Below are positions 34,948 to 40,678 of a stretch of 64,000 nt of DNA, one piece after another. The stretch's first letter is position 1. Each line of letters starts with the position of its first letter. Where the stretch lies: assembly GCA_039698055.1 (NCBI GenBank), contig JBDKTL010000024.1, positions 1 through 64,000 on the forward strand, in the 5' to 3' direction. Position numbers and translations under genes: made by a program. The DNA is from Methanoregula sp. Its GTDB lineage: Archaea > Halobacteriota > Methanomicrobia > Methanomicrobiales > Methanospirillaceae. Under the pieces are notes generated by a model that was not told the DNA's origin, searched no databases, and saw only the letters and a program-made list of their open reading frames with translations.

Positions 34948-36471
34948 TCAAATCCCATAGGTTGTGGGAACACGGTCGAGCAGCATCCCTTCAACAACTA
35001 CCGGCATGAGGCGCCGGCCTTCTTCAACGGCTTTCTGGAGCCGCCAGCTTCGTTCTGCATAAATAGTAAAGAGGGGTTCTCCTGCCCGGATGAGTTTTCC
35101 TTTCTTGGCATGAAGAAGAATACCGGCACCCCGTTCATGGGGAGCTCCTGCCAGCCGCGCAAGGGTAATAAGCGATGTGTTGTTCATCTCTATGACATAG
35201 CCGGACGCCGGTGAATTGACAACAAATTCATGATCGCCCGGATGGATGTCATCGGATTTGATATTTGGATCTCCACCTTGTATTGCGATGATCTCCCTGA
35301 ATTTTTCGAGGGCTTTTCCCTTTGTAAGAATCTCCTGGGCCAGCTGGGCACCGGTATCGCGTGCGGCTTTCCCGGACATTTCAAGGGCAATGCCGGCAAG
35401 TGAGATGCTTTTCTGGATGAACGAATTTGGTTCTGGAGAGCCTTCAAGAACCCGGAGAGCTTCACGGACTTCAAGGTTTGGCCCGATACTATGCCCCACA
35501 GGTATATCCCCATAGGTCAGCGCACATTCGACTTTGATATTAAGCCGGCCGCCCAGTTCGATGAACTCCCGGGCCAGCTTACGCCCTTCCTGCATCGACG
35601 GCACTTTTGTGTGCAGGCCAACAGGGATATCGATTACGACGAGATTGGCACCAACGGCAAATTTTTTTGCCATGACACTGGCAAGCATCTGGCCGCGGGC
35701 GTCAATCTTGAAGGGATATTCCTGGATGATGATCCGGTCGTCTGCGGGGGCAATGTTTGTCGCACCGCCCCAGACAATCACGCCGCCAATTTTTTCAGTC
35801 ATTCTCTGCACTTCGCTTGCAGAGAATTCAACTCCTGCAAGAACTTCCATAAGGTCTGCGGTTCCCCCGGCACCCGTAATGGCACGCGAGCTTGTTTTAG
35901 GTATTTTTAATCCACTTGCTGCGATGATGGGAACGACAAGGAGGGAAATTTTGTTACCGGGAACGCCACCGATGGAGTGTTTATCGACAATGGGCCGTGA
36001 AGCGAATTTGATCTGTTCGCCGGTTTCAACCATGGCGCGGGTGAGATGTTCCACTTCATCCATGTCGAGGGGATTAATATATGAGGCAGTAATAAAGGCA
36101 GTGAGTTCGGCAGGAGAAATGTCATCGTTGACGACGTCTTTGATGATGGTCAGCGTCTCATCCTTGGATAACCTGCCGCCATCCATCTTCTTTTTGATAA
36201 AATCCAGTGATGCCGGGCGCCCTGCTTCCCGCACTTCAATTCCGGCTCCATCTGCAAGGTTCAGGCGCTCGTTTGTAATCCGGTACAGTCCTGCAGTGCC
36301 CTGCCCGGCAAGAGTTGTTGTGGTGTCCACAAATGCGGTGACGGATACCCCGTTTTGCGGATTGATCACCTGCACACGGTCTCCATCCAGCACTCCAAGG
36401 TTCCGGGCGTCAAGCCGGTTGAGTAAAACACCCCGCTTTGCAATATCAAGGATTTTTGTGATGAACTTCAT
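34948..36471 (-). CDS. AMP phosphorylase
   Basis: [29 protein letters not shown]-terminal beta-barrel extension. Confidence 0.94.
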
Positions 36472-36869
36472 TTATCCTGCCTCCTGTTGGGACTCGGACT
36501 CTCGCACAAAGGCCTATCCTGATTATATCTACGTAGGTTGCACCATCATAAAAACCGCACCTGCGTGTGGCAATGAACAGTAAAGTAATTTTTCTCACGT
36601 GCAGGTGGAGACGGTGAGGGTGAACTTTTGCCGTACATGATCAGAGTTCCCCTGCCGGTAGTAAGCAGGAGCTCCGGTATGAAAACCGGGATGTGAGCAG
36701 GGTCATTGTTTAACCGGATTCGCCGTGAAGAGAATTTGCTGGCAGGTTCGATCCTGCAATGACCCGTGGGGGTATCCCATAAAATCCTGATGGGAGGGGG
36801 AGGGGGTACGTCCTTTTATGTTGTCAAATCACCGATCCCCACACAGGTATCAAGAGGGATCTCTCCCTG

Positions 36870-37255
36870 CCCCCCGCCAGAAATAGTTTTGGCTCAAACC
36901 CAGTGCGCCCCAAAAATATTTTTGCCTCATCACCCATCGCGACAAAAAAATTTCCGACCCAACTCAGATCGCGTCAAAAATAATTTTGTCGCAACTAAGA
37001 TCGCGCCAGAAAAAAATCCGGCGCGTGCCCGATCGGCCCGGAAAAATCTCTGTGACCCTCCAACAGACAATTGTTTACCGTCGAAACCAGCCCCCGGGAC
37101 GAGGGGGCCAACCGGGCGCCGGAAATATTTTTGCCTCACCAGCGATCGCGTCAAAAATAATTTTGTCGCAACTGAGATCGGCCCGAAAATATTTTTGGCA
37201 CGTACCGGATCGCGCCGGAAAAAAATCTGCCGCGATTGCGATCGGCCCGGATTGC
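36870..37255. repeat. Degenerate 32-bp tandem array (two blocks) of imperfect palindromes with GATCG anchors and central A/T tracts
   Basis: Unit starts 36903, 36935, 36967, 36999, 37031 and 37112, 37144, 37176, 37208, 37240; units 36967 and 37144 identical at 31/32 nt. Confidence 0.9.
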
Positions 37256-37290: not shown

Positions 37291-37298
37291 AAAAAAAA
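37291..37298 (-). terminator. oligo-T terminator of S-layer gene
   Basis: T8 on minus strand ~20 nt past stop. Confidence 0.5.
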
Positions 37299-37316
37299 GA
37301 GAGTTTAGATTTTAGT

Positions 37317-40121
37317 TCAGTGCCTGCGCACGACAAGGAGTGCAACTGCACCAAGACCGATCAATGCAATCAGTGCACCAAAGCCCGGCTGTGTGGGGGT
37401 CTGGGTTGGGGTTGCAACGGTGGTCGGAACGGTTGTCACTACAGTGACCGGTGCAGTTGTTGTAACGGTTGTCGGAACTGCGGTTGGGGCAGTGCCTTCA
37501 AGAACGTTGAACAGTGCAGTACCGCTTGCTTCCTGGAGGACTGCAGTTGCCTTGACAATGTACTCGTCGGGTTTGTACGTGGATGCGTCAACATCGAACG
37601 AGATCTTGTTCAGGCCGCTGTCACCCTTGGTAACCTTGACGGTTCCGGTTGAGCCGCTGAACCCACTGCTCATGCTCTTGTCAGTCGGCTTGAATGATGA
37701 TGAGTAGATCTCCATGAGGACGTCATCGTCTACCGCGAGGTTGGTGGTTCCTGTGACGGTGAACTTATCACCGACATGGCGGTCGCCAACGGGGTCGACA
37801 TTGATAACGGGTACCTCGACGAGGAACTGGAGCTTGGTGTAGGTATCATCGACATTTGCGCTGTTGATACCATCGATAAGTGCCTGAGCTGCGTTAGATC
37901 CCTGAAGGCTGCTGCTTCCGGTCAACTTGAACAGCTGAAGAGGCGTGGTCGTGATGAGCTCGTTCCAGACATATCCTGCAACTTGCGGGGCTGGACCATA
38001 TGCGTTGGGCTCGTACTGGATGTCGAACTTGTTGTTCTGCATCGGGTGCTGGGCAACAACGAAGTACTGTCCGGCAGAAAGAGACTTTGTGTCTTCCTTC
38101 TTAACCTCGTAGGAGAATGAAGCGTCGGAGTTTACAGACTGCGACTTGACAACTGCATAGTTCTTCCCGAGGATCCAGATCTGGACACCGGCGCTGGGCT
38201 GACCCTGTGCGGTACCGGTGATGAATACTGAGTCACCCTGTGCCACGGTCGACTGTGAGGCAGTTGCGCTGATGAACGGTGCCTTGATGATGATTGAGCA
38301 CGTGCCATAGGCAACATTTGCAAGCTGAGTGTTCAGACTGGTGGACTTCTGGCTTGTTGCAAAGATCGTGTAGGTTCCCTGATCGAGTGCAACGGTTGAA
38401 GTTCCCCATTTGTAGGACCAGGTGTTGTCAGCCAGAACTGATGCCTGGATCCAGTCGCCGTCATTGATAGCGGGGGTTGCCGCCGTGTCTGACAGGTCTC
38501 TGCTGCGTGGATCGAGGCTGGTCATGGATGAACCATATGCACCGAGGTTGGGCCCGGTGATAAACAGCCAGGTGGTCTGGGTCTCGGTGTTGGTACCGGA
38601 GAACTGGATCTCTTCACCCAGGTAGTAGCTCTGGTCGCCGGCGGCCACAATGGTGACTGCGCCCTTTGCAACCTGCACATTGACTTCATCGCTCTTGAAC
38701 TGGCCGGTGAAGTTCTGCTCTACACGGATCGTGTATTGCTGTGCCTTCGTCCAGTTGGTGGTAAGGAACTGAACAGTCCGGGTACCAGAGTCACTGAGCA
38801 AGACGTTTGCATACTCGTATGTACCGTTGCCGAGTTGCATGGATTGTATTTGCGCCTTGGTTAACGGTGCCCATGCGGCTGCGGGAGACCAGTTCTTTGT
38901 GTTAGGCGCTACGTCACTAAGGATTGTAGCCTGAGCCCCGTTCTGGTACTGGTAGTTACCGTTTTCTCCTGCGGCGAACGATGGAACAATTCCTGCTGCA
39001 CCGAGAAGACCGACGTTAGCTTCATTATCCAGAGTCACACCGGCCTGGTACGGCGCAATCATCGGGGGCTGGTCATCGTAAGCACCGCTCATGGTGCTTG
39101 TTCCCTTAACCCACAGGTGGTAGACCGTGTTTGCCCTACCGGTAATGGTAACGGAGAACGCCTTGCTGCGAACAACTGAGTCCTTGTTTGCCGAGAGCGA
39201 CACCGTGTTTGAAGCAATGGTGACGGTCTGTGCACTGGACACTGTCTTCGTGGTGTAGCTTGCACCGCCATTCAGGTAGTTGTTCAGCATGTTGTTCATC
39301 TTGGACTCAACGGTAACCGTGTAGGTACCTGCCGGGTATGCATTTGCACCGGTTGAACCAAGAACACCAGTTGACCAGTTCCCAAGAGCGGGAGTGCTCC
39401 AGTACCATGAGGGCGCATTAACTTTCTGCGAGGTAATAGATAATGGAACTTTTGCATCGTTAAGCAGTGAGGTCAGGGTGTTACCGGAGTCGGTCTTCAC
39501 CTTGATTTCTGCCCAGCCCTGTTGATCTACAGGCGTGTAGCCAGTGACCAATGCGGTCTGGTTTTGACGCAGGAGCGGCTGGTTAATTGCCGCGTCCATG
39601 TTGGTTCCAATCTTGAACGTAAGGTGATCTCCCTGGATAACGGAACCGCCGCTTACAGCTATTCCGCCCTGAGTACCCTGGTCAAGATCCCAGATGTCAA
39701 CGGAAAGTTGCGGGTCTTTGACATTGATATACATGCTGGAGTTGGCAAATCCGGTAACTGGATCAATCACATACCATGCAGATCCAGCGCCCATACCAAA
39801 CGCAGAGCTGGAAATCGTGGTAATGCCATCAGCAGTCAATGGATAGGTCGCTGTTGCGGTAGTGGACCCAATGTTAGCTGCTGATGCCCACCAGCCGAGG
39901 GCTGTCGCGGTCTTCCCCGTATATGCTCCTCCTGATGCTGCCATCGCTGCATTCCATGTGGTTACAGCGGGGGTAAGGTTTAACCCCTGTTCACCAATAA
40001 ACACACTTGCGCCCTGGTTGATGCTCGTGTTAATGTAGTTGAACGATGCCGATGCCGGCATAATTGCTACGAGAACGAACATCGCGAGTGCAACAAGTGC
40101 AATAGTTAATCGCTTAGTCAT
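37317..40121 (-). CDS. Major S-layer glycoprotein (Methanomicrobiales type) with PGF-CTERM sorting signal
   Basis: Signal peptide, VFIGEQGL (DUF3821-like), QHPMQN, VDDTYTKL, Thr-rich linker, QPGFGALIALIGLGAVALLVVRRH; GGAGGA RBS; strongly biased codons. Confidence 0.93.
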   Translation of the reverse strand: MTKRLTIALVALAMFVLVAIMPASASFNYINTSINQGASVFIGEQGLNLTPAVTTWNAAMAASGGAYTGKTATALGWWASAANIGSTTATATYPLTADGITTISSSAFGMGAGSAWYVIDPVTGFANSSMYINVKDPQLSVDIWDLDQGTQGGIAVSGGSVIQGDHLTFKIGTNMDAAINQPLLRQNQTALVTGYTPVDQQGWAEIKVKTDSGNTLTSLLNDAKVPLSITSQKVNAPSWYWSTPALGNWSTGVLGSTGANAYPAGTYTVTVESKMNNMLNNYLNGGASYTTKTVSSAQTVTIASNTVSLSANKDSVVRSKAFSVTITGRANTVYHLWVKGTSTMSGAYDDQPPMIAPYQAGVTLDNEANVGLLGAAGIVPSFAAGENGNYQYQNGAQATILSDVAPNTKNWSPAAAWAPLTKAQIQSMQLGNGTYEYANVLLSDSGTRTVQFLTTNWTKAQQYTIRVEQNFTGQFKSDEVNVQVAKGAVTIVAAGDQSYYLGEEIQFSGTNTETQTTWLFITGPNLGAYGSSMTSLDPRSRDLSDTAATPAINDGDWIQASVLADNTWSYKWGTSTVALDQGTYTIFATSQKSTSLNTQLANVAYGTCSIIIKAPFISATASQSTVAQGDSVFITGTAQGQPSAGVQIWILGKNYAVVKSQSVNSDASFSYEVKKEDTKSLSAGQYFVVAQHPMQNNKFDIQYEPNAYGPAPQVAGYVWNELITTTPLQLFKLTGSSSLQGSNAAQALIDGINSANVDDTYTKLQFLVEVPVINVDPVGDRHVGDKFTVTGTTNLAVDDDVLMEIYSSSFKPTDKSMSSGFSGSTGTVKVTKGDSGLNKISFDVDASTYKPDEYIVKATAVLQEASGTALFNVLEGTAPTAVPTTVTTTAPVTVVTTVPTTVATPTQTPTQPGFGALIALIGLGAVALLVVRRH

Positions 40122-40678
40122 TCGTTTTCCTCCAAAGTTTACATCATACAATTCAAGCCAGAGAATCGTTTCGACAGATGCCGAACAACGCTTCTACGAG
40201 CCCCATACTCCGTTTAGACGGAATATGAAAGAGTATTTGTTAAAGAGCTAATATATCCTTTGTGGTTGTTTTTGATGGCAATTCTGGGCTCAAAATGCCA
40301 TCAGTTTTTGATTCTGGTTGTTATTTGAAGGATTTGTAACATCTTTGGAACCCACTTTCATCACGCGTTGCGGATTGCAGATATATTATAGCCTCTTTGG
40401 ATTTCGCGCACCAATATAGATCGGTGTGTTAATATTAATATTAAATTATATTACAAACGTGATTGTCAAAATCTAATTACCCGTTCAATTATACGATAAT
40501 ACATCGCATTCCTCATTATGTTTTTGTAAATACTGTATTAATTGTATATGGTACAATGAAATTATGTTGAAATGAAATTGTATTCTGGACGAATCCATCA
40601 ATACGCAATTTCGTGAACCCACGTGTCCCCACATTCATTCCGACACATTATACATCATACAGGTACCAACTATTTTCC

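Follow-up and report, generated by a model that had tools for sequence, protein, structure and literature searches.

The window analysed here, a stretch of 64,000 nucleotides from one contig of a Methanoregula genome (contig JBDKTL010000024.1 of assembly GCA_039698055.1), carries an array of quasi-palindromic 32-bp units, arranged in two blocks, at positions 36870-37255, between a gene for an S-layer-type surface protein and a gene of the thymidine/AMP-phosphorylase family. We interpret this array, with moderate confidence, as one copy of a modular, dispersed, non-coding intergenic repeat whose units are putative phased docking sites for a protein. Copying of the entire element has taken it to at least four other loci of the same genome; it is gained or lost between close relatives, and its length changes by units of 32 bp. 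It is a portable accessory module and not an origin, a centromere or a regulatory part of the S-layer gene. A preceding sequence-only reading of the window had proposed a cooperative protein-loading platform kept for its spacing; relatives, however, do not keep the array at this position, and it forms part of a dispersed and probably mobile repeat, two outcomes that this reading had itself named as speaking against its proposal.

Anatomy of the array

The array in the window is composed of three parts:

36870..37062, plus strand: block 1, six head-to-tail units (unit register, unit-profile matches, lag-32 autocorrelation of 0.594)
37063..37111, plus strand: spacer of 49 bp between the blocks (read directly from the sequence)
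37112..37255, plus strand: block 2, four full units and a partial unit (direct duplicate of block 1)

When the sequence was read directly, all units that had been listed before were found in their places and aligned without gaps. Those of block 1 start at 36870, 36903, 36935, 36967, 36999 and 37031, the first of them (36870-36902) being a loose, C-rich, leader-type unit of 33 bp; those of block 2 start at 37112, 37144, 37176 and 37208, with the partial unit beginning at 37240. The 32-bp periodicity was borne out both by autocorrelation and by Tandem Repeats Finder, which assigned a period of 32 to the core of block 1 (36936-37015). At a lag of 32, the autocorrelation of positions 36871-37255 reached 0.507 as compared with a mean of 0.256 (sd 0.023) in 2000 shuffles (z 11.2), and the highest value obtained by any shuffle across all lags from 10 to 100 was 0.376. 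Block 2 taken by itself gave 0.589, a value close to that of block 1 listed above, and the rest of the 64-kb window did not exceed 0.41 at lags of 20-60. The strongest lag overall was 209 (0.62 identity), which results from the duplication of the block: block 2 matches block 1 with 72% identity in direct and 52% in inverted orientation. The blocks are direct duplicates, and a fold-back element was rejected for this reason. Because they are mutually 17 bp out of phase (37031 to 37112 amounts to 81 bp), the two blocks do not form one continuous phased array. The spacer between them contains the conserved word CCGTCGAAACC at 37078-37088 and a GC hairpin in which 37090-37095 pairs with 37103-37108; a CCGTCGAA-type spacer word is retained in other copies of the element despite small spacer indels.

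The invariance previously noted for C9, G22 and C26 holds in all ten units of the window copy, and A12, A13, A14, A16 and T19 are likewise present in 10 out of 10, while GATCG opens seven of them. Successive units join directly in head-to-tail order, without any spacer in between, and the identical unit order recurs at other loci; the array was thus correctly judged not to be a clustered regularly interspaced short palindromic repeat (CRISPR) locus.

Further copies in the genome under study

The genome under study (G000) is represented by a 2.26-Mb assembly of 49 contigs that is 93% complete. A profile built from the ten units and run over the whole assembly led to the same places as blastn with the 0.8-kb region:

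C24:36870-37255: the window copy (unit profile and blastn)
C32:58932-59247, minus strand: copy with 79.4% identity over 315 bp
C43:60904-61174: copy with 71.3% identity over 307 bp
C27:28737-29050: copy with 71.9% identity over 302 bp
C8:48064-48160: partial fifth copy, in which a leader precedes three C-rich units spaced about 33 bp apart

With at least five loci in G000, the array is not unique per chromosome, a point that had been put up for checking. The copies follow a composite plan of approximately 0.31-0.39 kb, in which a C-rich leader and 4-6 units are separated by roughly 50 bp of spacer from a further 3-5 units, and this full two-block composite is also found at G130:C5 and in a metagenome copy (L085). 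They align unit for unit, their unit order matches, and block 2 is the best conserved part among them (mean column identity 85%). The window copy is devoid of outer flanks that are present in some of the other copies, and the partial copy on C8 consists of a leader with CTGCACCAC followed by units of the type CCCCCC..CCAAAAATATTT.CGG. The 14-bp core of the unit, CRRAAAWAWTTYYG, occurs 18 times in the genome; the four elements account for 12 of these occurrences and the C8 copy for 2, the remaining 4 being located outside the repeat.

The neighbours of the copies are unrelated, and no gene is common to all of them. The window copy lies between tandem genes (S-layer and phosphorylase) and the C32 copy between convergent ones (radical-SAM and Fic); the C43 copy is placed between the divergent LigB and MNT/HEPN genes, and the C27 copy has an acyl-CoA synthetase gene or a small open reading frame (ORF) on one side and a PIN gene on the other. 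The metagenome copy L085 is flanked by a surface-protein gene and a zf-AN1 gene in convergent orientation. All three types of spacer, convergent, tandem and divergent, are hence occupied alike.

No Pfam match was obtained for the three ORFs that overlap the array, and a coding sequence was rejected, since 32-bp indels between copies and orthologues would break any reading frame. No Rfam family was detected at the window region or at 11 related loci, one unrelated tRNA aside.

Presence and absence among relatives

Synteny with the S-layer gene, likewise put up for checking, is not observed. The spacer between the S-layer and phosphorylase genes measures 845 bp in G000 as opposed to approximately 172 bp in G004, 175 bp in G021, 219 bp in G020 and 189 bp in G019, and the array is absent from it in these four out of five congeners. 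The fifth, G009, holds a different insert: the left 400 bp and a leader-type unit are kept, and the remainder is replaced by 1.2 kb. This insert encodes a 285-aa protein (L015:2850-3707) with a weak PadR-like C-terminal winged helix and no Pfam family above the cut-off. The 285-aa family occurs in multiple copies: of 61 genomes in the genus, 40 contain it, and one genome can have as many as seven matches. A tie between this family and the arrays was rejected, since an array is lacking at all 12 loci examined and the best unit match had an E-value of 0.042.

BLAST searches with the 401-bp element yielded matches in 6 of 41 related genomes, G000 included, and the sole full-length copy among those matches outside G000 was that of G009, an orthologue of the C32 copy. 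A covariance model of block 2 that used sequence only and, being a block-level model, misses diverged arrays, matched 19 of the 151 genomes of the family at E<=0.01. These matches comprise 11 of 30 genomes in the genus besides G000 and seven genomes in 5 of the 18 other genera, although those with E-values between 1e-3 and 1e-2 may include chance matches. E-values below about 1e-5 were obtained for G130 (at five loci), G019, G182, G185, G168, G150, G110 and G014. The model loci that we inspected are those of G130, G004, G143, G019, G184, G168, G182, G185, G150, G110 and G079. Scans with exact patterns returned three Methanoregula/Methanoregulaceae records among 185,579 species genomes and a single metagenome contig (none with the first pattern and one with the second); no array match was found in viral contigs, 72,556 plasmid records or 50,697 phage records.

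A DNA contig from another study (X5), which corresponds to 36128-36973 with 11 differences, contains the start of the array at this very site. As this contig stops inside the array, arrays of this kind are likely break points in short-read Methanoregula assemblies. DNA contigs of X7 were considered as unit-number variants and rejected; their loose ends match the C32 copy, and they are paralogues.

Several related or adjoining sequences were encountered among the relatives. A related but distinct array with 31-bp units of the type AACTTTCGCGCC-A7-..CCGG is present at L037 (G004:C1:4786-4944) and L036 (G143:C1:106734-106880), two loci that share flanking sequence. A G-rich module (GTGGGGCGGGGCCGG ... 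GAGCGGGCGGACCC) with no Rfam match adjoins the short arrays at L027, L029, L031 and L038 (in G182, G019, G168 and G184). In G182, G185, G150, G110 and G079, a short array stands beside a methyltransferase segment, and it is missing at that site in G000. The corresponding segment of G000, approximately 1 kb in length (L002:11597-12637, equivalent to C43:63596-64636), contains a gene for a 248-aa methyltransferase and a 141-aa ORF, has similar direct repeats of about 75 bp at its borders, and is 90-92% identical to the segments of G182, G185, G150 and G079, two of which belong to other genera. It looks like a recently exchanged cassette.

Behavior of the 32-bp period

Within the blocks, nearly all steps from unit to unit measure 32 bp and a few 33 bp. 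The number of units in block 1 varies between the copies (six in C24, five in C27 and in the G009 copy, and four each in C32 and C43), and the G009 orthologue of the C32 copy is distinguished from it by one additional 32-bp unit; in the alignment of the copies, exactly 32 columns are missing from C43. The earlier claim of a strictly conserved length does not hold beyond this. The last unit of block 1 and the first unit of block 2 lie 81, 79, 79, 79 and 76 bp apart in five copies. In the G004 and G143 variant the best lag is 31 (0.41 and 0.38) vs. 0.35 at lag 32, and the units of G019 and G184 measure irregular 29-35 bp. Orthologues from G000 and G009 differ by two 1-bp indels, both in linkers, per approximately 37 substitutions, which is an ordinary ratio. 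Given this ratio and the 31-bp or irregular periods of the relatives, there is no sign of the proposed selection on spacing. The strict period in this subfamily is explained by common descent of tandem units together with slippage of whole units. Since tandem duplication and unit slippage are thus the foremost source of the 32-bp period, it provides no evidence for selection on helical phase.

Symmetry and conservation of the unit

Our alignment comprises 48 units, 46 of them distinct, from seven loci. Conservation is distributed very unevenly over their columns: the variance of column identity among the 46 distinct units is 0.038, and 5000 simulations under the null yielded a mean of 0.0044 and a maximum of 0.0088. 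Columns C4, G5, C9, A12-A14, A16, G22, C24 and C26 are conserved to 91-100% and T19 to 87%, in comparison with only 37-46% for columns 23, 25, 28, 30 and 32; columns 12-19, at the center of the unit core, are 90-100% A/T. The conserved columns mirror each other across the dyad (G5/C26, G7/C24, C9/G22 and A12/T19) and together span 22 bp. This dyad is centered between columns 15 and 16 and pairs columns 2-12 with columns 19-29; pairing is realized in 63.0% of the cells vs. 25-48% when the partner is slid.

The imperfect dyad that had been described for each unit is consequently real as a property of the unit consensus, but it is not upheld by compensatory change. No covariation was detected in the dyad: column-preserving shuffles pair in 61.9% of the cells, 93 of 500 reach the observed value, and the covariation measures lie at the shuffle mean. 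Stem columns 6/25 are unpaired in 21 and columns 8/23 in 27 of the 46 units. Conservation that is uneven and symmetric and yet comes without covariation fits the recognition of double-stranded DNA by a symmetric protein rather than a hairpin.

The orthologous copies of the C32 type in G000 and G009 are identical at 301 of 338 positions (89%). Four-fold degenerate sites of the flanking genes are identical at 119 of 156 and 97 of 132 positions (73-76%) and flanking non-coding DNA at 575 of 699 positions; Fisher p-values for the excess conservation of the element in this comparison are 3.7e-4 and 4.5e-3. Among three orthologues (G000, G009 and L055), all pairs of elements stand at 0.89 vs. 0.79-0.89 for the flanks, and the core columns 5-26 are invariant in 139 of 154 cells vs. 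55 of 69 for the linkers. These figures, which come from a single locus, lend modest support to a constraint on the orthologous C32-type copy.

Gene surroundings and transcription

The features next to the array in the window are the following:

34948..36471, minus strand: gene of the thymidine/AMP-phosphorylase family (Pfam Glycos_transf_3, Glycos_trans_3N and PYNP_C)
37291..37298, minus strand: T8 run (19-26 nt downstream of the stop codon of the S-layer gene)
37317..40151, minus strand: gene of the S-layer-type surface protein, DUF3821 and PGF-CTERM (Pfam E-values 4.7e-33 and 2.6e-6)

About 400 bp separate the start of the phosphorylase gene from the left end of the array. The likely start of the S-layer gene is the ATG at 40121, behind GGAGG, and a TATA-like GGATATATTAG lies upstream of this gene (40100-40270 region). 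A TTAATA repeat of 4.5 copies (40429-40453 of the window) is located in the AT-rich spacer that separates the S-layer gene from a divergent thymidylate-synthase-like gene.

An A/T run followed by ...GAGNTTTAGAT(T/G)TTAGT is kept beside the S-layer gene in G009, G004, G021, G020 and G019. The T8 run of the window is the S-layer gene's own predicted oligo-T terminator-like signal and is located outside the repeat. It lies between the stop codon and the array and is kept in congeners lacking the latter, for which reason the array was rejected as a terminator of the S-layer gene.

RNA data were available as Logan contigs from two metatranscriptome runs of one sample (X3 and X4), and such contigs show no ends, strand or level. 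Contigs of both runs span the whole S-layer gene; those that carry it end at 37301 (X3) and 37314 (X4), which hints weakly at an end of the S-layer message at the T8 run. One X3 contig spans 36813-37203, and among the contigs listed none from X4 covers the array.

Origin, methylation and partner genes

An origin or partition role had been among the options put forward for the array. Cdc6_C matches were found only at C5:1556-1834 and C10:26614-26862; the Orc1/Cdc6 genes are thus situated on C5 and C10, and the copies of the element on C24, C32, C43, C27 and C8. No Orc1/Cdc6, Par (ParA or ParB-type) or Rep domain was detected among the 33 neighbor proteins scanned, and the GC skew does not turn at the site of the array. 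Near the start of the 12.7-kb contig C5, the main Orc1/Cdc6 gene is followed immediately by the only AsnC/Lrp-type gene of the genome (C5:1556-2425), and we regard this segment as a candidate for the origin region of G000.

The notion of a GATC-methylation-sensitive switch fares no better. GATC is common throughout G000 (16810 sites, observed/expected 1.9), and strong conservation within GATCG is limited to the CG: C4 and G5 are retained in 93% of the 46 units, as compared with 67-76% for G1, A2 and T3. Among other tetranucleotides, CTAG is nearly absent from G000 (391 sites vs. approximately 8816 expected, observed/expected 0.04, Markov 0.45), and CCGG is over-represented 2.8-fold.

A single histone gene is encoded in G000, in which a search for MC1 yielded no gene. 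An IS110 gene is located 4.4 kb from the C32 copy and shares no sequence with it.

Docking sites on a dispersed repeat and rival explanations

In the reading that we favor, the units would act on double-stranded DNA as dyad-symmetric docking sites with the pattern G-N-G-N-C-N2-AAA-N4-T-N2-G-N-C-N-C, at whose center an A-run is followed by a T-run. The putative binder would be a dimeric or oligomeric DNA-binding protein, which may either move or keep the element or may be a chromatin or regulatory protein of the host. The A-run and T-run centers are expected to bend the DNA in phase. A length of 32 bp corresponds to approximately 3.05 helical turns at 10.5 bp per turn, and successive sites would therefore face the same side of the helix.

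Several observations weigh against this reading. No terminal inverted repeats of at least 15 nt (seed 10) were found outside the units in six copies; visual inspection of the C32 copy showed a 17-nt inverted match, but the orthologues of this copy have it only in decayed form. No clean empty site, of the kind from which a target-site duplication could be read, was available: in G009, the places corresponding to the C43 and C27 copies either coincide with the end of a contig or have diverged completely. No Y1 transposase (PF01797) was detected in the 93%-complete G000, whereas control genomes gave matches, and none of its three TnpB-like genes is near a copy. TnpB loci are free of units, and a link to the IS200/IS605 family was rejected on these two grounds. 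No candidate mobilizing gene was found, and segmental recombination, instead of transposition, may have spread the copies. With respect to the binder, it had been remarked that no cognate protein is obvious nearby, and indeed no cognate DNA-binding gene adjoins any copy; the only Lrp/AsnC gene (C5:1928-2425) has no such sites upstream, and C5 holds no array. Finally, the excess conservation derives from one orthologous locus in three genomes, and in one pair the flanking non-coding DNA also stands at 0.89.

An explanation that we consider unlikely, though deserving of attention, is a cooperative loading platform selected by the host for an Lrp/FFRP-type octamer, a histone or another nucleoid protein, with the elements being kept for their function as local chromatin organizers, insulators or roadblocks to SMC. 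The anatomy of the array fits the archaeal Lrp site clusters as these are portrayed in PMC2995911, and the A-tract-rich intergenic DNA of Thermococcus together with TrmBL2 (PMC11840125) offers a parallel. The position-specific, symmetric conservation without covariation, the conservation of the orthologous copy above that of four-fold sites, and the presence of a histone gene also speak for it. Nevertheless, the element is dispensable, as copies come and go between close relatives and four of five congeners show an empty S-layer site; likewise, the core motif is nearly confined to the repeat, with only 4 of 18 occurrences elsewhere, and does therefore not mark a regulon of promoter sites. Furthermore, the sole Lrp/AsnC gene is encoded on another contig without such sites upstream, MC1 was not found, the symmetric columns span 22 bp and are thus longer than the 13-17 bp of Lrp sites, and the relatives display a period of 31 bp or an irregular one. 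From the platform proposed in the sequence-only reading, what stays plausible is the part that views the units as recognition sites in double-stranded DNA; its uniqueness, its synteny with the S-layer gene, selection on spacing, the origin or centromere role and the GATC switch do not.

A more novel but distinctly improbable reading regards the repeat as a portable chromatin module. Each block would be an intrinsically curved platform, coated or wrapped by a putative oligomeric archaeal protein with three helical turns per subunit pair, and as the element spreads, new insulators, roadblocks or nucleation sites would come to stand between genes. Use of these sites by the host would then account for the weak purifying selection on the symmetric core columns, and the element would represent an archaeal counterpart of the boundary sites that are borne by mobile elements in eukaryotes.

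Equally, we attach a rather low probability to the idea that the element acts as RNA or single-stranded DNA, be it as a row of hairpins forming a regulatory or stabilizing RNA, as a back-up bidirectional terminator, or as the target of a single-strand transposase in the manner of repetitive extragenic palindromes (REPs). Its predicted folding is strong, with -174.3 kcal/mol for the minus strand (z -5.7) and -134.8 kcal/mol for the plus strand (z -4.6) relative to shuffles; units such as GCGCCGG-N8-CCGGCGC can form GC stems of 7 bp, T4-T7 runs follow GC stems on both strands, two terminator-like sites were flagged on the minus strand, and an RNA-library contig traverses much of the array. The lack of covariation (63.0% vs. 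61.9% pairing) and the often unpaired columns 6/25 and 8/23 are at odds with this idea, and the two terminator-like sites are within the shuffle expectation of 1.2 (sd 0.9) of the bacterial-type scan. Neither an Rfam family nor a gene of the Y1/RAYT type (REP-associated tyrosine transposase) was found, the S-layer gene has its own conserved T8 run ahead of the array, and the copies reside in spacers of all three orientations.

We are still more doubtful that the array is neutral, decaying satellite-like DNA in which a palindromic unit of 32 bp was amplified once, the block was duplicated, and the copies were then scattered by recombination in variable regions. Whole-unit indels, a variable copy number, an ordinary ratio of small indels to substitutions between orthologues and the drift of the period in relatives would all be expected from such DNA, and several copies are situated among Fic, Schlafen/AlbA_2, IS110, DndB, MNT/HEPN and PIN genes, that is, genes related to defence, toxin-antitoxin systems and insertion sequences. 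Uniform decay is, however, not what the strongly uneven and symmetric column conservation resembles; the orthologous copy is more conserved than four-fold sites and pooled flanking non-coding DNA, and unit order is kept in copies that are only 71-79% identical.

A unique origin with iterons, a chromosomal or plasmid partition site and a GATC-methylation switch tied to the S-layer gene are suggested by the regularly spaced repeats with A/T cores and the GATCG at the start of seven of ten units, but are extremely improbable in view of the at least five loci per genome, the array-less S-layer site of four of five congeners, the location of Orc1/Cdc6 on C5 and C10 and the lack of its domain and of ParA or ParB-type domains among the 33 neighbors, the absence of a GC-skew turn and of any plasmid or phage match, and the genome-wide abundance of GATC.

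Small dispersed repeats are poorly catalogued in archaea, and in methanogens especially. The repeat offers a 22-bp symmetric site every 32 bp that can be used as bait for a binding protein; if the binder were a host chromatin factor, the elements would constitute natural portable loading sites for studying archaeal genome organization. At the same time, a period that looks designed can arise from unit duplication alone, which calls for caution in genome scans.

Comparison with known systems

No description of this repeat family was found in open-access papers or on bioRxiv; we compare it here with the types of elements that it resembles. BOX elements of Streptococcus pneumoniae possess the modular architecture boxA-boxB(n)-boxC, with a unit of about 45 bp. 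In an excerpt of PMC10969869, BOX is named as a pneumococcal intergenic element resembling MITEs (miniature inverted-repeat transposable elements). Like BOX, the copies of our element are small, dispersed, non-coding intergenic modules with a variable tandem internal unit and unique end and spacer modules, they have a strong predicted secondary structure, and they lack a transposase of their own. Unlike BOX, the element is archaeal and consists of 32-bp units, each of them a dyad with an A-run and then a T-run at its core, which are arranged in two duplicated blocks around a spacer; it is present in about five copies per genome, has no sequence relationship to BOX, and showed no terminal inverted repeats.

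REPs usually number more than 100 copies per genome, and bacterial interspersed mosaic elements (BIMEs) are regularly spaced REPs of alternating orientation, both being linked to RAYT tyrosine transposases according to the part of PMC2817692 considered here. Our element shares with them extragenic, imperfect palindromes of 20-40 bp, their regular spacing, their organization into composite intergenic clusters and their status as candidate protein-binding sites. It differs from them in that its units are all direct, its copy number is low, no Y1/RAYT gene was found in the genome, and its clusters move as a fixed composite.

Archaeal MITEs are listed for Sulfolobus, Halobacterium and Haloquadratum in the consulted section of PMC10969869, which speaks of only a handful of archaeal cases. 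As is the case for these, the element is short, present in multiple copies, non-coding and intergenic, varies in presence and absence between relatives, and bears no gene of its own. Unlike MITEs, it showed no terminal inverted repeats; moreover, no parent insertion sequence was identified for the element, and internal tandem units are atypical of MITEs.

The sites of archaeal Lrp are 13-17-bp imperfect inverted repeats with an AT-rich center that occur in degenerate clusters with a spacing of 2-3 turns and around which DNA is wrapped, as outlined in the excerpt of PMC2995911. Degenerate, AT-centered inverted repeats, a spacing of about three turns on one face of the helix and an expected wrapping are features that our element has in common with such Lrp/FFRP operator clusters. 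In contrast to them, it is not located in the control region of the regulator or of a defined target, its symmetric span is 22 bp, its 4-6 plus 3-5 sites are part of a dispersed repeat, and the sole Lrp/AsnC gene is unlinked. In Thermococcus, A-tract-rich intergenic DNA and TrmBL2 position Smc-ScpAB at domain boundaries, as stated in PMC11840125, and this SMC roadblock is a precedent for the portable chromatin module considered above.

The element thus fails the defining features of each of these systems, namely the terminal repeats of MITEs, the orientation, copy number and RAYT association of BIMEs, and the linkage of Lrp operators to their regulator. Its architecture is closest to that of BOX, its unit type to REP/BIME, and the anatomy of its sites to the operator clusters of archaeal Lrp-type proteins.

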